This document shows, in pieces, positions 2,346-64,000 of a stretch of 64,000 nucleotides of DNA (position 1 is its first letter; each line of letters begins with the position of its first letter). The notes beneath the pieces were generated by a model that worked only from the letters and a program-made list of their open reading frames with translations, was not told the DNA's origin and made no database searches. Origin of the DNA: Botryllus schlosseri (lineage: Eukaryota); assembly GCA_051294905.1 (NCBI GenBank), contig CM119372.1, forward strand, positions 3,164,001 to 3,228,000, written 5' to 3'. Both the position numbers and the translations under genes were made by a program.

Positions 2346-2633
2346 TCATTCGGAATATACGCACTTGATTATGGCGAATTGCAAGTCGATATTCCAGTAT
2401 TGCAACTCCATTTGGATCTCCTGGCTGCGTTGCATAGCAGCTAAGTATTCTTCATATGTGGTAGCATCTTGATTGACGGTAAGTTGTTCCTGCATCAACT
2501 TTATGTATTGTTTTACGAGTTCCGGAAAAGGCGAATCGGGATAGGCTGCTTTGTAGCTGTCAATCACTTCGTCGAACGCTTTGACGAGTTTTTCCGCATT
2601 AAGCGGTTGCTCCATTGCCGTGGTCAGGATCAC
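2346..2633 (-). CDS. Secreted Ly6/uPAR-like + helical protein, exon 6 (either ends at TGA 2346 or splices at GTGCGT 2364 to unseen exons)
   Basis: Acceptor gttgatatAG, phase 0, VILTTAMEQPLNAEKLVKAFDEVIDSYK...FAIIK. Same amphipathic character as exons 2-5. Confidence 0.75.
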   Translation of the reverse strand: MILTTAMEQPLNAEKLVKAFDEVIDSYKAAYPDSPFPELVKQYIKLMQEQLTVNQDATTYEEYLAAMQRSQEIQMELQYWNIDLQFAIIKCVYSE

Positions 2634-3385
2634 CTATATCAACACGGAAATGGAGGTTCTTCAAGCGTTCTTCAACTGCTGGGGAAATTCGAGACATGAT
2701 GGGCAGTGGGCACGGCTTTCCTAGCTTCGTAAACGAATGTAGTAATCCAATAGCCTGGCGTCCCGAACACAAAATTTATCAAGGCTAGCCTTGAACGAAA
2801 CCTATTGTCGCACTGACTACAGAAATATTTATTATAATAGTGTCAGGACACTGCAACCGCAACCACCTGAAAATTGCCCTCAGATATCAAATATCGGCAT
2901 TGTAGCGAACTATCAGAACGCCGCAATACTACGACCATAACAATCACCTATTGCTGCGGACTGATTGTTCGCGACCATGCCCATTTCTAGGCAACTTGGT
3001 TGCCCAACCGTGCGATCACGAATTGCGCACCTATCCTAACAGCTATCTATAAACCCGAATACTTAAAAAACCTTCGTAGTACCATGTCCCGACCATCCAG
3101 CGATTTGAAAATGAATAGCTGGTTATATATCAAATTGATTGTAGAAATGGGACCTGTGCTTTTCCTGTTACCACACAATTTAGCGGACCATGGGGTGACT
3201 TGTATCTTCTTTGAATCGGTTAAAACTATCTTATTTGTATATTCGTTTAGATCTGATTAATGACATAAGATAGTCTTATAACAATCCGACATTTATAAAT
3301 TGACTTGAATCACGGCGATAGACTCATTGTATTCCACTTTGGACTCACAAATCTCATACATGCACAGCTTCAGTAAGCTTCATAC

Positions 3386-3508
3386 CTGAATATTTTCCAG
3401 CATGGGACGCATCTCCGCTGGAACCTCGCCTCCTAATTTCGTGATGAGTTTGCTGATCAAATTGCCGACGTTTATGTTGGGCCATTTCTTGAATTCGTCG
3501 TCGATTAC
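3386..3508 (-). CDS. Secreted Ly6/uPAR-like + helical protein, exon 5
   Basis: Phase 0-0, 123 nt, VIDDEFKKWPNINVGNLISKLITKLGGEVPAEMRPMLENIQ. Donor GTATGA. Confidence 0.75.
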
Positions 3509-3908
3509 CTTGATATGGAAACACGAGATAATAAGCGTCAACAAAGCATTTCCCCTTCCCTCTCAAAGTAGCGGAGGTCTCGGGGCACAGCAAGAGTCAG
3601 CGTCACATCATAGCAAGCGCCTAAGCGAAATTCCGAAAATAAATATAAGAATGTAACAGAAGGGTGTTTTGTATACCCTGTGCTAGAACATTGAGACCCG
3701 ATTTCCAGTTTTATATTTAGATTTGACCACGGCCTACTAGTAGGCCATGATTTGACCTTCACCTACGCATTTTTCTGACTTTTCTCCTAATCATATTAGA
3801 ACCAGAATTACAGCTGAAGTATTTTTTCAATTAAACTAGAATGCATTCAATGAAGTTCAGTTCACATCAAATCAGATTTCATTATCATATGCATGACAAT
3901 GGCAAATG

Positions 3909-4193
3909 TACAATTGAATAGTATATTCATATTGAAATGAACTCGAATATTTTCGGCTGACACTCGTCAGGGGTAATCGTCAGCAACTAGTAGAGAATTT
4001 GAAAGAACAGCGTATATCAACAATCGTATCCCAAAATATGACGTAAAAATGATACTGACGTCATATTTTGGGATACGATTGTTGATATACAATGTTCTTT
4101 CAAATTCTCTACTAGTTGCTGACGATTACCCCTGACGAGTGTCAGCCGAAAATATTCGGGTTCATTTCAATATGAATATACTATTCAATTGTA
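3909..4193. repeat. Near-perfect palindrome (foldback MITE); relatives at ~4900-5230, 11487-11795, 13531-13665, 18755-19010, 38280-38365
   Basis: Arms 3909-4044 and 4058-4193 are reverse complements (3 mismatches counted by eye) around a 13-nt loop. Confidence 0.92.
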
Positions 4194-5915
4194 TATTGAA
4201 GTTCTGTACCTCCAAGAAGCTATTCAAATGGCAAGTGTGTGCACACAAGGTGTGGCTCGCTTCGCACTATACAATTCACTTGTAACAGAGATTAAATTAT
4301 AATTAAAAAATTAGAGCATAGACAGTGTATAGACACATTGCATAAATTAGGTTTGAACTAGGTTACCGGCATTTCCTTCTAATTAGTTTAATTACACAAC
4401 TAGGACTATTTTTCTAGTTATCTAAGCCTGGTGGCGTCGGCCCTGCTACCGTAATTGACTATTGTATCGCGCCCACCATGGGAACTTCATTGGTCTTTAC
4501 CATTTTAACATGAATGCTACATTAATTAATCGTGGTATCGTTTGTAGATATCATGTTGGTTCAAAACTGATGACGTATGACGTTCGCAGGACCGCATTAG
4601 GACAGCATCTCAGAGAAGAGTTCGTCCTCGATTCACTTCATGGAGCTTGATTCAAAACAGGCAACGACCGTGAATTCCGCCACTCGCAATCATTTATTGG
4701 ATAACTCTACTTGCGCAAAAATCATCAAGACAACAGATTTCGAATCGTCGGGAGTGGCCGTTTATTCTTTCATTTGTCTATCTTGGTGTGGAATTTGATC
4801 AAATTCTAGTTTATGCCAACAGATGGCGTTCGTGTATAATCTCAAGATAGTACCGTGAGCTCAATTATTCGGATTTTCATGCCCGAGACGTTCTACTTGT
4901 TGATACGTTTGTTGTTCTGCGACACTTTTTATAATTCTCTACTAGTTGCTGACGATTACCCCGGACGAGTGTCTGCCGAAAATAGCCGGGTTTATTTCAA
5001 TATGAATATGTTGTCCAATATAACGGATTTAAGCCAGAGCTACGGAAACCTGCTGTTAGCAATCGATACAGGCCCGAGATATTAGATACTGGATAGGCGC
5101 ACGGTGGTTCCTAACTCACTATTTGATGATGGTTGACGCACAATGTTCTTTTTAATTCTCTACTAGTCGCTGACGAGTGGCAGCCGAAAACATTCGGTGT
5201 AATTTCAATATGAATACATGATCCAATTATTCCCACAACTTAACCAACAGATGGTGTCGTAACAGAACATTCTGATATGTCGCGAACTCATTTGAACGCG
5301 AAATGACGTAATCTCCTGCTGCGTTCAAACATGGTCGACAGAACAGACCCAAGGCTCATGTTGAACTACAACACTATATTGTGTTTATAAGACATGCAAT
5401 AAATTTTAAACGTTGAACATTAGCGTTTATTGAAGAGCTGTCCACAGAGTACTAAACTTACCGACCCCTGCTCTCATCGATATAAAATTATTCAGGATCA
5501 GAAATAGAGTAATACAATTCCACTGATTCGAATCGGCTATAGTGAGAGAATATTATTTCAAGTACTGAAATTATACGCTTCTCGTCGAGTTAATTTATGA
5601 CAGAGAATTGATAGTATTCTCCGCTGTGGAAGGCAGTAAACCACGATCGGTCGTATCACAGCGTAGTACAAATCTAAACACGTCAGTGACAATAAGATAT
5701 CTATGATATTATATTTGACCAACTCGCAGCATTGTCAGAAAGAGCAATGAAATAGGTATGGTCGGAAAAACTAGCAACTTATCTCTAATGTGATGAAGAG
5801 AGGACCATTGCATTCTTTGTGGTCGCATAAAGGGTAATTTGAAATTTACACACCATCCATACTGTTGATCCGTCATATAACGAGCAATATTCAAATCCCC
5901 CACTCGACTAGGAGC

Positions 5916-6857
5916 TTGGACGGTGTGAACGAAAGCTTCACGTTCGCGTTCTGTGCGCGGACCTCAGATATGTAGAGATTCACGTTCACAAACGAACCTT
6001 GGTAGGTTCTGCACTGTGAACCTTTTTCATATATTACAGTTTGTCACGTCATTATAACATCTTTGATTGAAATTCTTTGCATTTCAACGTCGCACTACTC
6101 TATGCATGACGATGAAATCATAAAAAATCAACACTAAACGGACACGCCTTGCCAATCTCAAGAATTATACTTGCTTTGTTAGAAATATTTTCTCTAAATA
6201 TTCAGGTTTCCGTTTGTGAATATTTAGCGACTCTCTGTTGTGAGCTTGATCCACAATCACGCAACATCAATAACGAAATACACTACATGCAGGTAGTCAG
6301 CGAATGATGCTTATTCAACCAATCAATGAAATGGATACAAAGAATGCATCGTTGTCTAATGTAAGAAATCTAGCAGGCGCATGTTTATGATATCATAAAA
6401 AACAAATCTATGCGATTGAGGTGTTGGCTACTGTATAACTTGTTTGTTGGGTAACATCGATAGCAAGTATAGCAGCCCGTTTTACACCCTGTTCAATATC
6501 AATGTAGCAAAAGTCCGACACCGAATACATTGTCCGGTCTGGCCTAGACCGTTAGGGCGTAAGCTTACATTTCCTTGCAAGTCCTCGTCGAAATTGTTGG
6601 CAAAGCGACGAAAAATATTGAATTTAGGGGATTATTAGAGCATTTGATTGCGTAGGCGACGTTTAAAAAGTCATCATGTGCTTCAGCATTGCAGAATAAT
6701 GTGGCCTGAGTCGTCGCTGGATATCGTGTGAAGTACAATGTATATTGGTATTTCACTTCACTAAAATGTAGGGTTGGAATTAGCAGTATGACGTCATAGG
6801 CTCACGTTCGCGTTCACACAAAACCTTTCAAAAAGGTTCGCGTTCACACATCCCCAC
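5916..6857. mobile_element. Second copy of the 318-1264 element
   Basis: Colinear similarity over ~900 bp (gtgaac/gttcac ends, shared internal blocks). Ends are degraded. Confidence 0.85.
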
Positions 6858-6915
6858 TAGAAGCCTAATACCCAGCACGACCTGACTGTAAATATGTAAT
6901 CACAATAACTCTTAC

Positions 6916-7202
6916 CGTCGAGAAAGTGTCGACATAGCTAGTGTAGTCGACTGGTCCTACTTTCATGAGGTTGTAGAACGTTTTCGAAAAGTTGATGATG
7001 ATAGTTTTGAATAACGGTTGTGAATCTAAGAGACCGGGACCCAGCTGCGTTTTGAGCACATTCGTTACCATCGCGCTCAGTTTGGTCTCGGGCAATGTTT
7101 GGTCCAAGTTACGGAAGTCGAACGAATTGAATCCGTCAGCCATCTTTATGTAGACTGCTTGGATGGTAGCTTTGTCACCCGGAAACATTCTGTAGAATAG
7201 TC
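6916..7202 (-). CDS. Secreted Ly6/uPAR-like + helical protein, exon 4
   Basis: Acceptor catttgcAG, phase 1, GLFYRMFPGDK...YVDTFST. Donor GTAAGA, phase 0. Confidence 0.85.
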
Positions 7203-7428
7203 CTGCAAATGAAATGGACGTATTTTGTGGAGCCTGGTGTTGACTGGTCCAGCGCTATGTTATATACTACTTATCCGAAAATCAATTGTTCGCTTGTGGT
7301 CGTGCTTATACGCACGGCGCATTCAAAATATTGTACTGTTGCGTAATAAATCAATTGCAGCTGCTCTATACTGCAGTATTTGGCACATATCACAAAAAAC
7401 GCGTCTTAGTTATACCTTCAGTTTAAGT

Positions 7429-8080
7429 CAGGGGTCACCAACACGCGGCCCGCGAGATCATATTTTGCGGCCCGCGACCTGATTTGAAATTTCTGAAGAA
7501 CGCTTAGTACAGCATTTTGAATGTCACTATTCCTCACTAGCTGATACGGCTTCGGCGGTGGTAATATCTTTCCGTGGGGAAAAATTTGCTGATATGAATT
7601 GGCATATTGCCTTGACGTGCAATCGCCGACCACTGCCCAGACCAAGACGCTTAGAAAACGACTACGGGCCCCCAAAAGACCAAGCTCTACGAGGAGATAG
7701 TTTTCCAGCAAGTACCGTGTATATAGCTAACCACAATATCGATTCTTTAGTCCAGCAGTGGCGAATCTGCGGTAGTAGTAGGAAAATTATGCGGCCGTCG
7801 ACACTTATTTTGAATAGTATGTGTTGGCGGCCGTCAATATTCAAATTGAATTTGCGAATCGATTCCCTAATTATTGAGAAGTTTGAATCATGGTTATTCA
7901 TAACATGGCTACTCACGATTTGCCCGTCGTCCATGTTAGCGTTGTACTGACGTAGAGTTATCAAACCGTGGCTGTTATACAGCGTTGCCTATTTTTATCT
8001 CGATATTGAAGTCATGCGGCCCGCGGCCTCGACGAATTCCGAAAAGTGGCCCGCGACCCATTTTGAGTTGGCGACCCCGG
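7429..8080. mobile_element. Non-autonomous hAT (Buster-like); sister copy 58422-59430
   Basis: TIR CAGGGGTCACCAAC / GTTGGCGACCCCGG, TSD GTTTAAGT/GTTCAAGT, gcggcccgc subterminal motifs. Confidence 0.85.
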
Positions 8081-8366
8081 GTTCAAGTTGTATTGTACAA
8101 TGCGATCAGATCAGGCACAGTTTCTGGACCCATTTGTGTCCAGTTGTATGACTTTGTTAAATCATGCGCAATGACTCGGGTGCCAGTCGGGTCAATGCAC
8201 AAAGTAACTCCAGTCGAGTCAAGTCGTTTTCCATAGTTACGAAAATGACTGGAGTCTAAGTCAGGACTCGAGTCATTACAACCCAGGCTAATACATAGTT
8301 CATAGTAAATGACGACTTATAGTAAAATTACCAGGGCGACACTTATATTACGTTATTGACAGATAC

Positions 8367-8532
8367 CTGGCATCCAGTCAATGGTCGTTACGAACTCAGC
8401 GGCAGGAGGTTGCGCGGTCACCGCCGTTATGAATTTCGTCAGGGCGCTGGAAAATCGAGTAGTTGCTTGGTCTTTCACGCTATACTTCTTCAACAATTCA
8501 AGAGACCAAGTTCCCACATAGTTTGGTCTCGT
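8367..8532 (-). CDS. Secreted Ly6/uPAR-like + helical protein, exon 3
   Basis: Follows a 63-nt intron. Acceptor ttttcttttatAG, TRPNYVGTWSLELLKK...IDWMP, donor GTATCT, phase 1. Absent from the ORF track. Confidence 0.8.
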
Positions 8533-8595
8533 CTATAAAAGAAAACCGTGATTTACAAGGCTGCACCACGACTTCCGAAGTCGAAATTCGGTTAC

Positions 8596-9314
8596 CAGTG
8601 AACCCGCGACTAAATCCGGCAGCGCGTTGAAAACCGGGTCCACGTACTCTGCTATATCCGATGTAATCGGGTAAGAGCTCCGAATGGTGCTGACCATATC
8701 TTCAGCTGTTTTGGTCCAATTCGCTGGGTTTACGTTACCGACTATTTTCAACCCCACGTCGTACCACATTTCCGCTTGCCATTCCGCGGGGAAAAACGAT
8801 CTTAAAAGTCCTGGGAATTTCTCCAGCAAAGCTCCCGGCATGTCCTGACCGTACACGTCCAACCCGATGTTGTTGAAAAAAGATCGCAGGGCGCCGGAAA
8901 GGTCTGGATGCAAAGTTTGCATTTGTTTCACCGTCTGTGTGAACACATTGCTGGACTGAGATATCGCAGACGGATTTCCTCTTAGAGCAGCGTTCAGCAT
9001 GTCCGCTAACGGCTTCTTAAGTGGTTCTGCTTCCGTCAAATCGAATCCAAGATTTTGATAAAATGTGAACGCGCCGTCTACGAAGGACTGCGTTCCAGTA
9101 CCGTTTGACAGTAACTCAATCAACGAAACGGGTGTCGTTTTAATGAATTTCGTTAGAGTGTCGTTCATGTCGCGCACGATATCAGGAACCATCGACAGCA
9201 GATTCGAAGGGTCGAACGTGCTGTCTTCGGCGAACAGATTCTCGCAGTCGAGATAGTCGGCGTACGCGCTGTTGATGCACGCTCCGTAGCGAATTTCGGA
9301 CTTCAGTTTCGTGC
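8596..9314 (-). CDS. Secreted Ly6/uPAR-like + helical protein, exon 2
   Basis: Acceptor ctctttatacAG, phase 1 (G|GC), GTKLKSEIRYGAC...LDC...AGSL. 719 nt open. Donor GTAACC, phase 0. Confidence 0.85.
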
Positions 9315-9421
9315 CTGTATAAAGAGAAGCATTGTAAAAAAGCAACATCATTGAGCTGCAGTAGCTATGCCTCTTATTTAAATGTTTTTTTAATACACAC
9401 CAGCCCAGGGAGCCGTTGCAC

Positions 9422-9840
9422 CAGAATACAAAAAGAAACATAGCTCTATCAAGTATGCCGGACCCCAATTGTGTAACAGCATCTCGGCGGCTATCCGAGA
9501 GCCGTCGAGCATGTCCGCATTCAAGTCGAAATACAAGCATTTTCTTCTAAATTAATACTAGCCAGCCTTCAGGATTAAAGGACCACGACCTAACATCGAC
9601 CTCACCCTCCGCCACATGCCACCTCATTTTGTCGCTTGCATCTTATATTCTCTGTATTACTTTTCATTCTGTGTGCATGCCTCTTCTTTACTTCGCCTAG
9701 GCTAAGGTGGGTGTCTGATCTTAAAGGCTGCTCCAAGTTGTTTCGACACCTTCCTATCTTTCCATTGTGTCGCAGTCTTGTGATGTTTTGAAATGATGAC
9801 AACATTAATAAACAGATTGATTGATTGATTGATTGATTGA
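9422..9840 (+). mobile_element. 5'-truncated CR1/L2-group LINE 3' end
   Basis: Encodes the SIKYAGP.LCNSI...FKSKYKHFLLN ORF2 tail, has the shared 3' UTR and ends in (GATT)n. Confidence 0.85.
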
Positions 9841-9920
9841 GTCCGCAATCCTCAAATTCTGCGGAATCACAATAACGGAAATCTTTAACCACCTTACACA
9901 GCTAATACATGACTCTAGGA

Positions 9921-10405
9921 CAGGAGCGGGCAACTTCTCCAGACGGTAGGGCGGATATGGGAAAATGAAGTACTTGGCGAGCCGCATTCCTCAATCGATT
10001 CATTAAACGCGTAGTTATCCAACTATACAAGGATTATAGCATTTAATATGAACTTTCAAGTTTGAAGCATAGAAACCAAAGCGGTATTGAATGAATTTAT
10101 TATCGTAATATAGGTCTACTTCAATAAATGTTGAGGTCGATGAGACATCCGTGGTCGATCAAAGTTGTGTCGAGGTTTTTTTAACTCTGGCTCTCTGGCT
10201 GCATGACGGACACGAAGAAGACATAGAACTATTATCTGTGTCCGAAAAAAGAAATAATAACCTACAGTCGCTATAATTTGATGTAGTAAGCAAGTAGTGG
10301 AGAATTGCGGGACACTGTGACTGCCTCCCATATTATCATTCAAGACCAAAAACTGTCTGCGATCCTCTCAAAATCACGTTGCGGGCCGTATGTTGCCCGT
10401 CCCTG
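9921..10405. mobile_element. Non-autonomous hAT
   Basis: TIR CAGGAGCGGGCAAC / GTTGCCCGTCCCTG, TSD CTCTAGGA/CTCTAGAA. Confidence 0.75.
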
Positions 10406-10771
10406 CTCTAGAATAATAGCGCACAAAATAAACTCTGCATCCACAATACCCTGAAAAGAATAAAACCATCAAAAACATGACTTTCAAACGAAACATTATT
10501 ATTGCTAATTTATTGCAAATCAGTGGGATATAAGCGATATCAGTCGCGTCGGGTGTGTGGCTTGACCTCCCGCGAACCCGTGAGACATATGGTTCAGCAA
10601 ACCCAGTTCAGAACCACCGATTTAGGCCAAGGTGCCTATCTGCTTGAAAGACCGCTGCAGGTCGTTCCGACTCCTGCCTATCTTTTCATTCTATCACAGT
10701 CTTGTGGTGATTTGAACACTAATAAAGGAACGAACGAACGGATGAAATTGCTATTTGCAGTTTGAATACGT

Positions 10772-11070
10772 TAGGGTTACCATATTTTGGAAATCTGAAA
10801 AGAGTACATTTTTTCAAAATTTTAAAAGTTGCAAATCGGAGGAAAAATACTGACAAAATGAAGAAAAGTCAACTCTCCGGCTCAGCTCCCGAAATACCCG
10901 CCGGCCGGAGCGTTACTTCGGTGCTGATTTACGGCATCAAAGTCGAATTTGGCCGTAAAAAGAGGACAAAAATCTCAAAAAAGAGGTCAAAAGAGCGTCC
11001 TCAAAGGACACTTTCGAAAAAGTCAAAAAAGAGGACAAACCCTTTTACAAGAGCACGTATGGTAACCCTA
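10772..11070. mobile_element. hAT MITE (TAGGGTTACCATA family; copies 42340-43230, 48645-49055)
   Basis: TIR TAGGGTTACCATA / TATGGTAACCCTA, perfect TSD GAATACGT, aaaagaggac internal repeats. Confidence 0.9.
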
Positions 11071-12996
11071 GAATACGTGTATGCGGTCCTTGGGAAGCAA
11101 AAGTCGTATCAGAAATTAAACTATATACGGACGTTTACGTTTTCAAGTTTAAAATCTTACATATCGACATGAGCCTTTGATTTATGGTTCTACATCTCCT
11201 TTCTATCGACTCTATTGCAACGCTTTCCGAACCTCCCTCTAAATATGCAATTCCCTATTTCAAGGACTGATCATGAGCAGCAAGTCCATGAATATAAGGA
11301 TCCTACGCCATTTACCAATCCAACACCATTATACAGTATGGTATGTAGTAATGTAAATTTTATAAAATTTTATATCCTTTCGTTGTGGCTGCTTTCGGAG
11401 GAAATTCTCAGCATGTGGTTTAGCTTCTGTTCACACGGAGATTTTACAGTGTCCATTGAACTACAGTATAGTTAGAAGAGCTTAGAGGTACAGAACTCCA
11501 ATATACAATTGAATAGTATAATATATTCATATTGAAATAAACCTGAATATTTTCGGCTGACACTTGTCAGGGGTGGTCGTCTGCTACTAGCAGAGAATTG
11601 GAGAAAACATTGTATACCTATAATCTTAACACTAAATATGACATCACCGGCATGACATTTCGAATAATCAAGGCGAAGAGCTCGATATGCTACGTTCTTT
11701 TCGATTCTCTGCTAGTTGCTGACGAATGCCCCTGACGAGAGTCCGATGAAAATATTAGGGTTCATTTCAATATGGATATGTAATTCAATAGTATAGTTAG
11801 AGTATCCTCGCTCTACAGCCAGCGAGATCATGCTGAAAATTGGGAAATTTCGATGTGTAATCTATGAGTACACATCGGTTAGCTATATCGACATCCAATA
11901 ACATTCCTAATAATTTACTCGGGACGTGTATACGTATATAGTTGCGCGTGACATTTCTGACGATTTCTGAACATGATTGGCGTTACATCGCTATTATTCC
12001 AATCGCACAACGTCCAATACGCCACGATCACATTCAGATAGCGTCGTCTCAACATGTTCCTACTATTGAAATTTATCAATTATTTAGTGTCGAACTATTC
12101 TCGCAGAAAAGGCCTGCATAAATCCAAATACCGGTACAAGGCGGTACTGCATGCTACAGAGAGAGGACATTGGCGTATTCAAATACTTTCCATCAGGGAT
12201 ATCCCTGCTTTCTGTATCCATTATTACAAACAGATTAATTCTGGGATATACAGCCGAACGACATAAAATCTTTCACGGGCGGACTAGGATAGTGTTCGGA
12301 CCGGTTTTGGACAATTTTGAGACACTCGGATCGGATTCGGATTCTATTGCAGATATTTTCGGATAGTAGTGTAAGTTTTACTTCGAATATTTGTAAACAC
12401 GGACAGTAAACATTTCCTGATGTGACTAGTTGTAAGAGGTGGTCAGCAACGAAGTACTTCTACTTTTTGAAGTACTTGATGTAGATTTTGCCTACTCGCA
12501 CTACTTATTAGGTAGTTATGATTTTAGACTACTTCTACTTGACAATTTTTAGTTTTTTATGTAAACATAGGCGTAAAATCCCTACTTACTTGCTCGGGAA
12601 CTGCCACTCCTACTTCTACTTGAATAAAAATTCCGGCGTTACTTCTACTTCTACTCGAGTAGCGACGGTGACTACTTTGACCATCACTGCTAGTTTTTCA
12701 GTCGAAGGTCCAAGCAATATATATATATATATATATATAGTTAACCCTGACCTTAGCATTTGTAAAAAGTACTCGCAACTCAGCTGTACAATTAGGATTC
12801 TTCGGAAAAGTTTTTCGATTTGGATTTTAGACGGCATTATACGGATTCGCATGGATTTTTGGTTGAGATTGTTCGGGTTCGGACGGATAGTTCCTCAGAG
12901 ACTCAGGCTGTCGAACGGATTCGGATTCTCAGAAATCAACATCCGCTCATCACTGGTGCACACAAGCTGTGGAAAATATTTTATAGTTACACCTAC

Positions 12997-13186
12997 CGGC
13001 TAGATCCGTGTCCATTGTAACTCTTTGACCAACGCACTTGCTGTCTCCAGAGCACTCGTTTTCCTTCCAATAATGTAGAGGAATACCGTTCATCGTCATG
13101 TCGAACCCTTCATGACACTTCAAGCCATGTATTGGTGAAAAGGCACAGAGTGCAATTACCAGCAATAGGGCTATCCTACTCGTCAT
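12997..13186 (-). CDS. Secreted Ly6/uPAR-like + helical protein, coding exon 1 (signal peptide, Cys24/45/51)
   Basis: Starts MTSRIALLLVIALCAFSPIHG|LKC...C...C. Donor GTAGGT at 12996-12991. 190 nt, ends in phase 1. Confidence 0.85.
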
Positions 13187-13775
13187 ATCGGGAACAGTAT
13201 ACTGTAATAGGCCTATTTATGTTCTGTAGAGAGGGAAGAATTGCATGTAAATAATCTCACACATAGCTCTACGGTGCATAAATACAAAGCTTCTTGTCCC
13301 CGCCGATGAATTTGATGATCACACCAACAGCATACGGGATCAAATTCTCGACAGATGAAAATTCCCATTATAGACATTAGGCCTACAGTGCTGCTCAGCG
13401 AAATAACTTACGTCTATTATACAAACCCAACATGAGGCTACTGGATTAGCCGAATTTCACCATATACCTCAATCGAATTACGCTGATATACTTCTTTTTC
13501 GTAGAAAGGATTATTTGAACAGCTTCTTGGGGTACAGAACTTCGATATACAATTGAATAGTATATTCATATTGAAATAAACCCGAATATTTTCGGCTGAC
13601 ACTCGTCAGGGGTAATCGTCAGCAACTAGTAGAGAATACAAAATAACATCGTATATCAACAATCGGGTACTATCAAAAGGGCTCATGCAGACATTTTCCT
13701 AACATGTGGCTCGTCCATAATTGTATGTAGCGCATCCCAGAGGTTTTAAAACCTATGTTGACTTCCCTTGGAACA

Positions 13776-30304: not shown

Positions 30305-31024
30305 TGGTTTTCCTGAAAATGCTACCGGACTCAGAGTCCGGGACTCTTATATGAGAACCGAGCCAAGGTGGCTGTACATAGTACGGACATTCACCATCAT
30401 CATGCTTATGATATGATAATGAACTCTCGTTTGGTATGGTATGAAGTATGAACTGAAATTGGTTTCGCAAACTCGGTAATTCTAATCTATTTCAGAAAGA
30501 GTTGTGTAGCTATAATTTTAATTCTAATCTGTGTGGCTATGTTTCTAATTTTAATATATATACAATAATTTGAAATCTGGAAAGGCTGAAAATCTTTCAG
30601 CTGTCCAACTCTTATTCTAACCCTATTTCCCCTACTGGTCTCAACAAAATTTAGTAGGCCTACAATTGAAGTTCTTTAATGCAGCTACGTCATGTGTAAT
30701 TGTCAAATGTCCGCTATAGAATCGTTTTCACGTTATCTGATATGAATCCAGCCGCGTCTAATGCAGTATTTACTAGCTTCTAGAGTTCTAGCTAAAGTTT
30801 TGAGGGTGGCTAGTAGCTTGAACCCAACAATTACCGGTATGCAATGCCTGTTATTCAAGTCTGTAAGATCAATTGAGCGAGATTTACTAGTAGGGCCTAT
30901 AGTAGATTCCGAAAAAGATTAATTCCTTTCCTTGATGATGTGTTAATAATCTCTGAGATTGCATCTCTGTTCGCAGCGTAGAAGACTCCTCTATCCATCA
31001 ATCTATATCCAATCTTATAGCAAT

Positions 31025-31552
31025 ATGTTAGCACCACGGATTATGCACTGTCGCGCACTCAACTTTTTGTCCCAGAGAAGTATAACTCAAACCCTTCACA
31101 GATGCAAGAATTTTTCGTCGATGAACTCTCCTTTTAGCGCCTTCACGCTCAAAAATCAACTTCCACATAGCAATATTCCTCGAAGAAGATGCTACTCTAC
31201 GGAGAAAATTGAAATCAATTTAATCAACCGTAAAGGAGAGAGGCTAGTTTTACAAGCTGCCCCCGATGATACCATCCTGGACGCTGTCATTGATAGTGGG
31301 ATGGATATTGAATCTTTCGGAGTATGCGAGGGAACTTTGGGTTGTTCAACTTGCCACGTGATATTGGACCAACCAATTTTCGAAATCATGGAGAAAATAT
31401 GTCCGCCTACTGCCGAGGAATTTGATATGCTTGATATGGCTTGTGGTTTGACGGAGACTTCCAGATTGGGTTGTCAACTGGAAGTTTCAAAAGACATAAA
31501 CGGTTGCACGATTAGAATACCTCAGGAGGTGTCAGATGCGAGAAACCTCTAG
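31025..31552 (+). CDS. FDX1: Mitochondrial adrenodoxin-type [2Fe-2S] ferredoxin, uninterrupted CDS
   Basis: GVCEGTLGCSTCHVI and SRLGCQ give the C-x5-C-x2-C...C ligand set. GTL matches FDX1 rather than FDX2 (ASL). Arg/Ser-rich N-terminal transit peptide. First ATG at 31025, 4 nt after an AG acceptor. Confidence 0.93.
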   Translation: MLAPRIMHCRALNFLSQRSITQTLHRCKNFSSMNSPFSAFTLKNQLPHSNIPRRRCYSTEKIEINLINRKGERLVLQAAPDDTILDAVIDSGMDIESFGVCEGTLGCSTCHVILDQPIFEIMEKICPPTAEEFDMLDMACGLTETSRLGCQLEVSKDINGCTIRIPQEVSDARNL

Positions 31553-32738: not shown

Positions 32739-34359
32739 ATATTGAGTGATGCCCGAATACTCAACTTCAAAGCCTAATATTCCATTCAGAATTGAATCAT
32801 TCGGGGACTGGATTTTGTGCAGCCTTACTTATTACGTGAGGTCATGATTAGATTGAGAAATTGCTCCAAGCAATATATTCCGCGCATGTCAAATGGCAAT
32901 ATGAATCTGTCTTCTGTTACGTCTTTGAAGCGTAATTGATCAAATTAATAGCCCTTTGCTACAAATCCTCATCTCGGTTTGCACGATTTCATTGTAAAAT
33001 AATGAATCACAACTGATATTTGTTTTATATGCCGTGCGACTTATTTTGTGGACTTCTGTAAACTCGTTTGCCCACCAATGCTAATGCTTTGTTTGCTGAT
33101 ACCACTCCACTTTTAGATATTAGATAAATAGCTGAAAGATGAATGTTTCCCTAATTTGCCATGAATCACCATATTGCTTTGTCAGTGTGATGTAACTAAA
33201 AATCTGCACTGTCATCTCCACTTTTACAAAGTAGTATTGATAGCTTGAAGATTGGCAGTGTTTGCTTTATAGACGAGGTATCTTGGGAGGATTGGCTTAG
33301 TTTTTGAGCTGTTGGATGTATTTTAGTTGTCTGTAGTACAGCATTATCAGTAGCCTACTGACTTGCTTAATATTAGGCGGTAGACTTGAGCTGATATATC
33401 AAGATCGACGCATGAATTTTGTTGCAATTTTATCAATGCATGCATGAATTCGGTTGTAATGGGATCATTTACGTCAGATTGTCGAATATTTATACGGTAT
33501 GCAGCTCATTTTGTTGGACTACTCTCCTAATACCTGGTATGATTTTGCATTTGTAACGTGATGATTTTGAAACACAATAACCACTTCAACGCATAATTGT
33601 AGTATAACAAAGACCATATGGTGAAGGTGATATATTGTATTGTGTTATTAATTCTCAGTAAATATTAAACCTTTGATTCGGAGATTACATATTCACCAAT
33701 GGTAGTGTGTTAATTTTCAAAATCAGTTACCTTCTTGGAGACAATGAATGGATGTGTTTTAACATTTAGAAATCTAGTCTGTTAGCTTATATTGTTACTT
33801 TACGTCAACCTTGTACAATGCACATAGGTTTCCTATTTAATTAATACACAGCATGTTCTTTTAGGTTATTGTGCTGATACACATTTAGTCCATTGTGCCA
33901 TCCTGTGATTGATTATTGACACAAACAATTTAGCAAGACGATGCATTGGAATATTCTTTGTCATAACTCATAAGCAGCATTGTTTTCTTCATTACTATCG
34001 TATACATATTCATGTCTAGTGCCTTCTGTTTGCGTGTTGTGATGATTGGTGCTTGGTGGGTTTATTTTTGCAATGCCATATATAATACGGTAATTGTGTG
34101 TGGTTCTGTGATTGGTAAATAGCCGTTCCCTGTAAAAATAGTCCGATGTTTCCTGTATATTGCGAATGTTACCATAGTGAAACTATTGGCTGTTATATTG
34201 AATTGAGATAACGTTTTTGGAAAGTCGGTTCATAACAAATTGATTTAGATAATGGAAATATAGCTACCTTTCTTGATGAATTATCTTTTTTCATACCGTA
34301 TGTAATACTCTTTTTATCTCATATAGACATCTCATATATTTCTGTCAATATCATCAATA

Positions 34360-34383
34360 ATGGTGAAAGAAATCCAAACCAAG
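34360..34383 (+). CDS. TXN: Thioredoxin exon 1 (MVKEIQTK)
   Basis: 24 nt then donor GTAATG and a 60-nt intron. Same 8-codon first exon as vertebrate TXN. Confidence 0.9.
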
Positions 34384-34443
34384 GTAATGCTAATGCGATC
34401 TGCAAGTCATTCAAAAACAATTACGTTTCTGTTACTTGTTCAG

Positions 34444-34542
34444 GCTGAATATGAAGAAGCACTCGCGAGCAACGATATAGTCGTCATTGACTTCTCTGCT
34501 ACTTGGTGTGGGCCGTGCAAAATGATTGGCCCAAAGTTCGAA
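34444..34542 (+). CDS. TXN: Thioredoxin exon 2 (WCGPC active site)
   Basis: [33 protein letters not shown], bounded by cAG and GTAAGT. Confidence 0.97.
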
Positions 34543-34780
34543 GTAAGTGCGGATCACGGTACCTGGGAAATGTTCCAAAGTCTTCCCGTGTCGATTTGAT
34601 GCCAGCTGATGAATTGATCGCAACTCGCAATTTAGTTCTGGTCGACTAAAAAGTGCTATAGCATTGCCCTATGCGTTTTTGAAATAATGCTAGTAATTTA
34701 ACTTCATGTCTAGGAATTAGGTTTGGAACAAACAGTGCCTACTTTGAACAATGCTAAACAATAAACGAAGCAGTGTCAAC

Positions 34781-60947: not shown

Positions 60948-61471
60948 TCATACATTGCTATCGCAACTACTCCGACCATCTTTTATATCGTCCTCAGACG
61001 GAACATCCGAAACGATTCTTCCTCGGCCAAATTCTGATACGAGCCCCACTTTGGAAGCGAGGTAAATTCGTATGTGATATAACAAAAAAGCGATGGAATG
61101 TAACAATGGGGATATTATTACCACGACGCTAGTAAACACTGCGATCGATATAGCGGGATTCATTTCCCAGTCGACAACCTTGTGATAAATGCAAGATGTC
61201 ACCCCGGACCAATGCAATACGAGAGTAAATACTGCATAAATGACAAAATATAGAGACGGGTATAAAAAATGCAACAATCGCACCGGAACTTTCGATAAAA
61301 ACAAGTCCACCGTGTGTAAGACAGAACATATGGCGTGGCGATGTACGCTTGACGCGAGACTGGTTCGACTCTGCACTCCAACGCTATAGAACATGATAGT
61401 CACCAGGTAGCTTGACACGATGGATGCGTCCCGTATCATCCACGAAGCCTTGTACCACCACGGTAATCGAC
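60948..61471 (-). CDS. rost: Rolling stone-like multi-pass membrane protein, terminal exon (upstream exons not identified)
   Basis: Acceptor cctttgtcatAG, phase 1. LPWWYKASW...LVTIMFY...VHRHAICSV...DLFLSKVPVRLLHFLYP...IY..VDW..NP...PLLH resembles the rolling-stone/FAR-17a-like pattern, with several hydrophobic segments. Confidence 0.85.
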
Positions 61472-64000
61472 CTATGACAAAGGCAACACTAAGTCCTTAA
61501 CGCTTCGGTGGGGTTCATTCTGTAATAGGTCGTACGATTATTTGTTTTTACATAAAAAAACGGAAGATTTTGACATTTTTTCACCATAAACTTAATTTTG
61601 ACAAAATTATGACCGCACGTATGTAAATTGGGTGTTTTCGCACATAATGTTAGAATTGTACTACTTGTCTTCATTTCTGGGTGGAACTGTCTTTCCTTCA
61701 GAAAAAGTTTGGCCTGAAAAACTTTTTGACTTAACAATTGACAAATTTTTACGCGAATTTTTTTTAATTTTAACATAATCTGGACCGAATTCCAGCAGTT
61801 ACATCTCGCATTATGGTAGAAATTATTTAAATTTGTTGTAGCACAACAACGAAATATACTTTCCTACATTCTCTAATTGAAAGTGTCTGTCCCAACGCCT
61901 AAGTAGCTTGACAAGAATGGAGAAAGAACGTTAACAGTAACAGTTGTTGGCTGGCAGCACTGGTCACTGGTGAGTGGTGACACACCGTGTTGCTTCATTC
62001 TGACAATGTTGTCTACATCACAATTTTTCATCATGCGCTTCTTGATAGAAAAACCAATGTACATTCAGTCTTGCTTCAGTTAGGATATTGCGGTACGTTG
62101 AGCAGAGCATAACATACCATGGCAACCTATTTCTTTCATTTGACCGTTTATGATTAACAATGGGAAGACGATGGGCCGTCTGTAACGGTGGGCCTGTGAA
62201 GTAGGCTACAAGATGTAAAATGTCAAATGATAAGTTCATCGACAGTGCAAACATCTACGATACAAACGAAATGCAAGTTGCAATCAAATTTTGACTTTGT
62301 AGTTAATTTTGACAATTTTATGACCTAACGCTACACCTTTGACGAAATTTTCTCTTTTTGTGACCTGTTAAACAATCGCCCCAGTAACAAGGTGTTGTAG
62401 GCTACGCCAGTTTACAGTTTACTAAATCCGAAGAGTGAAAATTAACTAGTTTTGCCTAAAAACTGTCAAGCGGAAGAGGGAATAATAAAAAACCATTACC
62501 ATTTGATCAAGTAAGTATAGGAAAAACCGACTTGAGCATACGGAAACAGAGTACTTCGCTATTGGCCCATCTAAAGCAGTGCACAGCAGTATGGCTGTTA
62601 TGTGCAGCGGTAACACAGTACACAGACGAGTAGGTCTACAAACCAACGGTCAATCTTTTGCGTCAACGAGATTAATCGATAGATAATCAGAGTGCACACT
62701 AGCTTATCACATCAATTCGTCGTGCACGGATTATCCTCCGATTCCGGAAGGTTTTCGGGTATCAATGCTACTCAATTGGCCCATTTTCAGAATCTCTGTA
62801 TTCAGATCGCTGTCGCTTACGTAAATCTCAAATCTAACGAAAAACATTACAACAACTTTGAAGGTGCATATCTGGACTATCAAACTACAACGATTACAGA
62901 TACGGTTAAGATTTTCCGTAAAACACATGGCCAATATAGCGTAGCTTGACAACTAGATAATTCTAACTGTCTAATTAAACTAATTAGAGTGAAATGCCAG
63001 TAATCTAATTAATTCGTGAAAGGTTTGTTTGCTCTACTTCGAATTGTAATCTGATTTGTGAAATGTTTCTAGGCTCTGATTACAACCTAATTTTTAGTTT
63101 TACTGAATATGCTACACGAGAGCTGAATAGTGCGAAACAAGCCAATTTTGCTCTACAGAGATTTGCAATTCTCGTGCTTATGGGAATGAACTATGATTTC
63201 ATAAGAACTGAACTTCATGCAATTTCAAGTCATTCTAATTTTAATCTAATTTTGCAAAACCTGGTAATCTAATTTGAAATGCAAACAGTGTAAGTATAAT
63301 TCCAATTCTAATCGAATATAGAAAAGCTGAATTTATTCAGTAGTCCATGTCTGGCTTAGTGTAAATCAATATAGTCACTAATATTTACTCGACAATGATC
63401 AGTCAAGTCGCGATATCAATTAATGTCAGTCTCTAAAGACGACCCAACCAAATGCTTGCGCGACATAGTCTTTTCCCAACGAACCACAATCTTTCGCCAC
63501 GGAATTGATTTTTATAAGAACTGTTACTTTCAACTAGTGCTATCCCGCATAGACTCCACATCTGACTTAGATGCATAATTTACGGTTGGCCTAGGGGGCG
63601 GGAACCGTTTTCCTCAAAAGAGCCATATTGGTCCAATATTTCCAATTGCAATTCCCAAAGAGCCATACGGCGAAGCAAAACAACTGTGACGTCACAATTG
63701 AAAATTCGTGATGTCATGATGGCTCGATATCGAAGTTCACTACGTGGGACTTGAGGTTATTACACCCACACCCGCACTAATCAAGCCGGTTGCCAAAGAT
63801 TTTAGCATGCAATAAGTTAGCTTAGCTATATAGGGGTCGGGAATCCTTTGGAGGCTATATATTTTAATTTGCATTCCCTTGAGAGCTATATGATATTATT
63901 CGAAACTAATTTGACTTTCTAATTGGGAATGTCACCTCCAAGGAAGTTCATTTCTCGCCGATTAACATGAAGAAAATCGGGCTTTCAAAACTGCATTGTC

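Follow-up and report, generated by a model that had tools for sequence, protein, structure and literature searches.

A likely GPI-anchored A74-family glycoprotein of Botryllus schlosseri with a long, predicted helical repeat insert in a likely LU domain

The window analysed here is a stretch of 64,000 nucleotides of Botryllus schlosseri (contig CM119372.1, positions 3,164,001 to 3,228,000). It contains most of a real and expressed gene (table 1). A sequence-only reading had proposed six minus-strand exons with phases 1, 0, 1, 0, 0. Their GT/AG ends and phases are confirmed, and raw RNA reads of run X23 cross all five in-window junctions: 12997/9314 (12 reads), 8596/8532 (15), 8367/7202 (25), 6916/3508 (33) and 3386/2633 (27). 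Three further runs, which have no RNA label on record and whose RNA nature is presumed, also show these five junctions within single contigs. The donor at 2364 leads, as predicted, to a further exon: contigs exit the window there, and their overhang maps some 340 bases ahead of the first letter of the window. The exon 7/8 junction is crossed by 55 X23 reads and 17 X21 reads, and RNA support extends to 7/7 junctions of the gene. The RNA evidence comes from the raw reads of runs X23 and X21; the expression reads are bulk and unlabelled single-cell. The six exons join as proposed, but the length of 585–590 aa given to the protein does not hold: the spliced product has 739 aa, and the supposed C-terminal Cys586 at the end of exon 6 is intron read-through. 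The pyrimidine tract and AG ahead of the ATG may mark a trans-splice site or the acceptor of an exon in the 5' UTR. Contigs of three studies carry exon pieces that deviate from the genome by 0–1 letters. This is only weak evidence against hyper-polymorphic allorecognition, because contigs drop rare variants.

Table 1. Features of the focal gene. Positions are those of the window, except where prefixed by contig C2.
Feature	Position	Strand	Content
Exon 1, coding part	13186-12997	-	Signal peptide aa 1-21 (putative boundary), LU N-half, Cys24, Cys45, Cys51
Exon 2	9314-8596	-	YGAC76, Cys87, start of helical insert (aa 88-303)
Exon 3	8532-8367	-	Insert aa 304-358; belongs to the 246-aa repeat unit common to a giant paralogue
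Exon 4	7202-6916	-	Insert aa 359-454; contains the position aligned to the A74 ITAM-like motif
Exon 5	3508-3386	-	Insert aa 455-495
Exon 6	2633-2365	-	Insert aa 496-585; GT donor at 2364
Intron 6, start	2364-2346	-	Apparent Cys586 and stop, intronic
Exon 7	C2:3163661-3163404		Outside, just before window start; aa 585-671
Exon 8	C2:3162047-3161598		Outside, just before window start; Cys673/678/683, Asn684, S/T spacer, hydrophobic tail, stop, 3' UTR
Pyrimidine tract and AG	13224-13240	-	Just upstream of ATG; longest RNA contig begins here

Signal peptide and GPI calls for the product were made from hydropathy. The N-terminus is hydrophobic, in agreement with the signal peptide claimed earlier, and is probably cleaved. 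The C-terminus has a spacer with an S/T share of 0.27 and, within the last 30 aa, a 15-residue hydropathy of 2.2. Of the long-insert genes of the family whose tails were compared, 8/8 finish with a spacer rich in S/T and then a hydrophobic tail that lacks any charged cytoplasmic run; a ninth looks alike. Such a tail is GPI-like, so that the protein, earlier called secreted, is likely GPI-anchored at the cell surface.

Apart from Cys14 in the signal, the cysteines of the 739-aa product are 24, 45, 51, 76, 87, 673, 678 and 683, the last followed by Asn684. The 585 residues between Cys87 and Cys673 are cysteine-free. A closing C..CN had been expected on a later exon, and exon 8 supplies it as C-x4-C-x4-CN. 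The consensus cysteines 1, 4, 5, 6, 7, 8, 9 and 10 of the LU (Ly6/uPAR) domain are thus present in order, with Asn directly after the last; these eight were counted as the LU core, pair 2-3 being optional. In the paralogue alignment, Cys1/4/5 are invariant in 12/12 exon-1 rows, Cys6/7 in 12/12 rows, and Cys8/9/10 with the Asn in 11/11 aligned rows plus a twelfth found separately. Disulfides of the three-finger LU fold follow the pattern 1-5, 4-6, 7-8, 9-10; the corresponding pairing here would be 24-51, 45-76, 87-673 and 678-683. The domain halves likely form such a fold, an LU domain cut in two by the insert and stapled shut by the predicted Cys87-Cys673 bond. The large insertion in finger 3 proposed by the sequence-only reading is supported by the closing exon, the invariant cysteines and the predicted all-helical insert.

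The spacing of the focal protein (C-x20-C-x5-C-x24-C-x10-C-[585]-C-x4-C-x4-CN) parallels that of an in-genome type I TGF-beta-receptor-like ectodomain (C-x15-C-x6-C-x22-C-x12-C-x10-CC-x4-CN), although Cys8 and Cys9 are adjacent in the latter and four residues apart in the former. As one LU study describes them, GPI-anchored single-domain Ly6/uPAR proteins and TGF-beta receptor ectodomains share with the focal gene a signal peptide, cysteines 1 and 4-10 of the consensus, the invariant Asn, clustered genes and a canonical intron of phase 1 where loop 2 has its tip (PMC6600238). Intron 1 of the focal gene is in phase 1 and falls at codon 64, in the stretch from Cys51 to Cys76; it has the canonical position and phase as defined there (PMC6600238). 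The focal gene differs in lacking the 2-3 bond and in having the signal peptide on the same exon as the LU N-half. LU domains span 60-90 residues, whereas here 585 separate Cys7 from Cys8; with that contiguity lost, the domain is therefore an LU variant rather than a plain LU member. A family-specific disulfide domain that merely resembles LU, its halves not rebuilding the three-finger fold, is improbable. It would suit the extra residues between Cys8 and Cys9 and the lack of a significant profile match to LU families: LU-family Pfam entries matched no exon or full-length homologue, and PDB sequences gave no LU match for either half. The family core profile scored a weak 4.5 bits against the in-genome LU ectodomain, a value reached by 0/200 shuffles, and did no better than shuffles against four other frames. 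The number, order and spacing of the eight cysteines, the G-x-C before Cys6, the terminal CN and the intron position and phase nevertheless fit LU. A 2026 survey of invertebrate LU proteins, in which no tunicate was sampled, lists LU fusions and no split LU (PMC13719153).

At least 13 paralogues are encoded in the genome. Their inserts, of about 330 to 4,270 aa, consist of helical repeats, and the focal gene is a member of a four-gene tandem cluster. The giants have 74 and 198 N-glycosylation sequons. The family is under purifying selection (dN/dS 0.34 and 0.15 in two paralogue pairs); in the closer pair, LU exons are 90-93% identical and insert exons 67-93%. Four short-insert paralogues, and likewise one 46%-identical outside homologue, end in KxEL, which resembles an ER-retrieval signal, instead of the GPI-like tail. 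An exon-1 match on C11 was rejected as a family member. In Styela clava, the uncharacterised proteins LOC120338161, LOC120343116, LOC120342692 and LOC120342139 have the same split frame around inserts of 580-630 or about 2,450 aa; the compact homologues are 30-33% identical to the focal protein. In XP_039262231.2 (1,398 aa) of the same species the A74-like part runs on into a GPS and 7TM adhesion GPCR, a fusion that may be a merged gene model; a search for an adhesion GPCR on contig C2 found no match among 52 listed, with 63/194 candidates scored. The Styela and Halocynthia homologues were reached only by exhaustive protein search. Word-indexed protein search returned two unnamed ORFs for a one-exon paralogue query, one for the family profile and, among longer proteins, nothing for exon 2.

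The 585-residue insert is predicted to be all-helical, and it is built of repeats: a 246-aa unit is common to the focal protein and a giant paralogue. Structure models were of one whole insert and one repeat, both from proteins other than the focal one. Foldseek gave no match at E 0.001 for either, and VIA-align gave generic three-helix matches only (best Z 9.1 for the whole insert, 5.8 for the repeat). In Pfam, neither exons nor repeats nor the A74-like portions of homologues scored above cut-off, and no family was common to more than 1/15 repeat rows. PDB sequence searches gave nothing significant, and the ESM Atlas yielded a pair of bacterial clusters with low scores and otherwise no usable result. 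None of the solved folds searched matches the helical repeat. The MA-domain, saposin-like and nematode polyprotein allergen folds are candidates on which the VIA-align matches are too generic to decide. An enzyme role was rejected: neither His nor Cys is invariant anywhere in the insert, and polar residues are seldom so; the invariant residues are mostly Pro, Gly and hydrophobic. The lipid-binding, carrier or pore-forming bundle first suggested draws on the all-helical models, on amphipathic helices (mean hydrophobic moment 0.35 versus 0.25 shuffled) and on the existence of the ER-type branch. A 2 x 6-helix repeat reminiscent of insect MA-domain lipid capsules also speaks for it. The amphipathicity is, however, ordinary, as are GRAVY (-0.14) and hydrophobic share (0.44); the insert has no 19-residue hydrophobic span (maximum 0.79) and no membrane-spanning helix, and neither Pfam nor the fold comparisons offer an outstanding match. 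A bundle or lipid capsule of this kind is accordingly not supported and is given a low probability.

Blastp aligns the focal protein with A74 of Halocynthia roretzi (UniProt O15983, BAA22658.1; P0027, 722 aa) over aa 1-690 at 34% identity (E 1.7e-132). A74 has the same eight cysteines and CN, a 565-aa insert between Cys85 and Cys651, an S/T spacer and a hydrophobic tail. The match is end to end, which places the focal protein in a family of which a single member has been characterised. The architecture, unrecognised at first reading, thus has a precedent in A74, while literature searches outside the original A74 papers turned up no paper in which a split LU domain is described, or A74 treated as an LU or GPI-anchored protein. 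The best match to A74 among 12 inserts tested is that of the focal gene (317 bits; next 303), and A74 groups in the tree with the tandem-cluster genes (support 100/99). Three paralogues share the group of the focal gene and A74, so that orthology with A74 need not be one-to-one.

We take A74 to be the H. roretzi ITAM glycoprotein of a published review. In that review, it is described as an ITAM-bearing membrane receptor with two ITAMs, associated with phosphorylated proteins and with PI3K and calcium signalling, and active, on antibody-based evidence, in hemocyte aggregation and phagocytosis (PMC5465252). The focal gene, in contrast, has no strict ITAM and lies in a tandem cluster. That it encodes a membrane-spanning receptor with cytoplasmic ITAMs is highly improbable, despite the signalling just described and the ITAM-like strings in 7/13 inserts scanned and at A74 353-372. 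The strings sit at differing places, between Cys7 and Cys8 and among N-glycosylation sequons; that of A74, too, is inside the insert. The pattern YxxL/I-x6-12-YxxL/I has no match in the focal insert, where YxxF-x10-YxxM, which is no canonical ITAM, stands opposite A74 357-372 in the alignment. Hydrophobic peaks of A74 occur only at 3, 61 and 702. As neither protein has an internal membrane span and the A74 motif lies inside the insert, the published receptor picture is doubtful. A74 papers reportedly describe tyrosine phosphorylation, which is not simply explained by an all-extracellular protein. Since a cytoplasmic part is lacking, signalling would be only indirect, through clustering or a membrane-spanning partner and not through ITAMs of its own.

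The same architecture could instead belong to a structural glycoprotein that coats the surface of epithelia, mucus or tunic, or acts there as a spacer, and recognises nothing specific. The variation of insert length through tandem repeats, the heavily sequon-bearing giants and the nature of the invariant insert residues would all agree with this. The focal protein, however, is compact, has 4 insert sequons and, of those tested, comes closest to A74, for which the review gives antibody-based blood-cell evidence (PMC5465252); a coat function is rather unlikely. At slightly better than even chances, we favour a 739-aa A74-family surface glycoprotein, likely GPI-anchored, whose likely LU domain, with its predicted closure by Cys87-Cys673, would hold out a 585-residue, predicted all-helical repeat domain. 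This domain likely serves in cell adhesion or recognition, a role that A74 is reported to have on blood cells; by analogy, the focal protein may have a blood-cell role.

A wider picture, on which we are evenly divided, is that in ascidians finger 3 of an LU domain became a socket for an undescribed all-helical repeat fold able to extend from 330 to more than 4,000 residues, that an ER-KxEL branch and a GPI-surface branch split early, and that A74, which is cited as an ITAM receptor of invertebrates, is wholly extracellular with its 'ITAMs' in the insert. The KxEL branch points to another function of this scaffold, in the ER lumen. A family that conserves its cysteine frame around inserts of 330-4,270 residues would mean that entire domains can be accommodated in the 7-8 loop, and the split of the frame explains why profile searches miss such proteins. 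Through the homology to A74, the 1997 ITAM claim becomes open to direct test. GPI anchoring of A74-family proteins would preclude cytoplasmic ITAMs in A74, and signalling in the aggregation of blood cells would then require a partner; were the lipid anchor true, the supposed signalling motifs of A74 would be outside the cell.

The minus-strand focal gene, in the window G000:C2:3164001-3228000, adds a new member to the A74 family, whose namesake is a blood-cell protein of Halocynthia roretzi (UniProt O15983). Its six exons in the window, proposed by a sequence-only reading, are borne out: the splice sites are canonical and join in frame, and the five internal junctions are supported by 12, 15, 25, 33 and 27 raw RNA reads of run X23. 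In each of three further runs, presumed to be RNA, all six exons lie on one contig. The donor GT at 2364 is used. Contigs exit exon 6 there, and their unmatched letters map about 340 bases ahead of the window start. Exons 7 and 8 are situated before the window start, and their junction is crossed by 55 reads in X23 and 17 in run X21. After splicing the product comes to 739 aa, and the introns are in phases 1,0,1,0,0,2,2; Cys586 and the stop of the six-exon reading are intronic and not part of the protein. A splice-acceptor-like tract directly 5' of the ATG (window 13224-13240; also at about 5940-5955 of genome stretch L011), at the RNA contig start, may reflect either a 5' UTR exon or trans-splicing. 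Intron 4 contains a short interspersed repeat (window 3900-4230), two copies in opposite orientation, which attracts many reads from other genome sites.

Residues 1-21 are hydrophobic and signal-like. The mature cysteines are 24, 45, 51, 76 and 87, followed by a cysteine-free insert of 585 residues. The closing C..CN motif predicted on an exon beyond the donor exists, as Cys673, 678 and 683 with Asn684, and is followed by an S/T-rich spacer and then by a hydrophobic C-terminus. Ly6/uPAR (LU) domains are described in a review as 60-90 residues long, with bonds 1-5, 2-3, 4-6, 7-8 and 9-10, a last cysteine invariably followed by Asn, an intron at the loop 2 tip, usually phase-1, and known cases of 2-3 bond loss (PMC6600238). 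Against this consensus, the focal cysteines fit as 1 and 4-10, the insert sits between cysteines 7 and 8, and intron 1 is phase 1, between Cys51 and Cys76. An intronless type I TGF-beta-receptor-like gene of the same genome (L084:1372-2952; C7:23.36 Mb), which we judge to be such from its GS box and kinase, with a Pfam PF00021 match below cut-off, has eight ectodomain cysteines without the 2-3 pair. This eight-cysteine frame is common to both proteins, with ten residues there in place of 585 here. The joined family core profile scores only 4.5 bits on that ectodomain, a value reached in 0 of 200 shuffles; on four other frames it does no better than shuffles. Pfam and PDB-sequence searches return no LU-family match. 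A disulfide domain of non-LU kind is nevertheless improbable; the cysteine pattern and gene structure argue for an LU origin, which is very likely. Literature searches found no description of such a split LU variant. The accessible text of an LU protein survey across invertebrates, from 2026, mentions fusions and contains no split domain; the lancelet is the sole chordate sampled there (PMC13719153).

Structure prediction for inserts of this family gives helices. The AlphaFold2 model of a one-exon paralogue (642 aa, 7 rows) is all-helical (pLDDT 66.5, pTM 0.41), and that of a single repeat (15 rows) has 12 helices (pLDDT 81.0, pTM 0.62). Neither model has a Foldseek match at E 0.001. The best VIA-align matches, Z 9.1 for the whole insert (87 residues, rmsd 3.4) and Z 5.8 for the repeat (63 residues, rmsd 2.4), are both at a level that common helical arrangements also reach. 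The focal insert has a GRAVY of -0.14 and a mean hydrophobic moment of 0.35 (0.25 when shuffled), and contains no hydrophobic span, every 19-residue window being <=0.79. Its sequence is that of a predicted soluble helical domain. The earlier suggestion of a lipid-binding, carrier or pore-forming role finds no pointer to a lipid cavity or pore in these values, and has a low probability.

An exhaustive profile search over 1.84 billion representatives yields 15 matches at E 0.001. Of ten looked up, five clusters are uncharacterised Styela clava proteins, one contains A74 and four are unnamed; the named relatives are ascidians without exception. A74 is 34% identical to the focal protein over aa 1-690 (E 1.7e-132), with eight cysteines and tail alike. 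Among 12 inserts tested (two giants and the broken gene left out), the focal insert matches A74 best, and a tree, which carries a warning on A74 letter composition, places A74 in the tandem-cluster group at 100/99. One-exon genes top an exon-by-exon genome search only because their matches are longer. A review describes an H. roretzi membrane glycoprotein with a role in hemocyte aggregation and phagocytosis, two ITAMs, and signalling via PI3K and calcium (PMC5465252). In A74, hydrophobic peaks occur at the signal, at residue 61 (1.38; within LU finger 2) and at the C-terminal end, and an ITAM-like string (353-372) lies between Cys85 and Cys651. The glycoprotein of the review is presumably A74. 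No strict ITAM occurs in the focal protein, and an ITAM receptor is a very remote prospect. The S. clava gene model P0025 (XP_039262231.2) joins an A74-like ectodomain to a GPS + 7TM adhesion GPCR, either a real fusion or a merged model. Another homologue, P0028, contains the closing motif twice and could be a merger of two genes.

Neighbouring genes in the window, and paralogues in the 495 Mb genome (C, contig; L, genome stretch)
Feature	Location	Strand	Remarks
2Fe-2S ferredoxin (adrenodoxin-like)	window 30950-31552	+	single-exon
Thioredoxin exon	window 34327-34599	+	
Rolling-stone-like membrane protein	window 60948-61496	-	
Three tandem neighbours	C2:3.07-3.16 Mb		intact, eight exons each
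Three genes	C2:21.5 Mb		insert mostly or wholly on one exon
Giant paralogue	C2:13.44 Mb (L038:1262-8743)		insert 2,445 aa, single-exon; 246-aa period
Thirteenth paralogue, giant	G000:C2:13407245-13420186		insert ~4,270 aa, single-exon; 210-aa period; read without its first exon
Short-insert (KxEL) paralogue	C6:12.777 Mb (L069)		
Short-insert (KxEL) paralogue	C6:2.82 Mb (L075)		
Short-insert (KxEL) paralogue	C3:22.10 Mb (L081)		
Short-insert (KxEL) paralogue	C3:22.147 Mb (L073)		

Paralogues were sought with exon 2, exon 1 and the one-exon paralogue as queries; 12 of 13 exon-1 matches are real. The cysteine frame is invariant among aligned rows (12/12, 12/12 and 11/11). The two giants adjoin each other and are both rich in N-glycosylation sequons. 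Eight 246-aa repeats make up the 2,445-aa insert, and the repeat profile matches the focal protein over the whole sequence (E 3.8e-21). The two closest neighbours compare at a dN/dS of 0.34; for the focal gene against one neighbour the value is 0.15, with dS close to saturation. Five introns lie within the insert in the tandem cluster (C2:3.07-3.18 Mb) and none or one in other paralogues, for example at C2:21.5 Mb, a difference of intron gain or loss.

Two kinds of C-terminus are present. All eight long-insert genes compared have the S/T spacer and hydrophobic tail, and all four short-insert genes terminate in KTEL, KLEL, KLEL or KSEL shortly after the closing CN, endings that resemble an ER-retrieval signal. 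An unrooted 11-row tree divides the two groups at 100/99, and its KxEL side is long-branched. The three intact KxEL genes have 0-1 insert sequons. In the fourth, on C3 at 22.10 Mb, the big exon is frameshifted and contains an inserted stretch (L080:8705-9901, L081:1-1240; C3:22.137-22.139 Mb), and the first intron harbours a retrotransposon-like 909-aa frame; this copy is likely a pseudogene. An unnamed outside protein (P0021), 46% identical to the insert at C6:12.78 Mb, ends in KTEL too. In a reporter screen, the second position of KxEL tolerates every residue except Pro, and human ER proteins with KTEL exist (PMC2140024). The termini suggest that the KxEL branch is resident in the ER.

For the focal protein, a structural coat is conceivable, though unlikely. 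The simplest model, which we hold to be somewhat better than an even bet, is that of a glycoprotein attached by a GPI anchor. The LU domain would form a disulfide-locked base presenting the helical repeat domain, which would work in adhesion or recognition, and signalling would occur only by clustering or through a partner.
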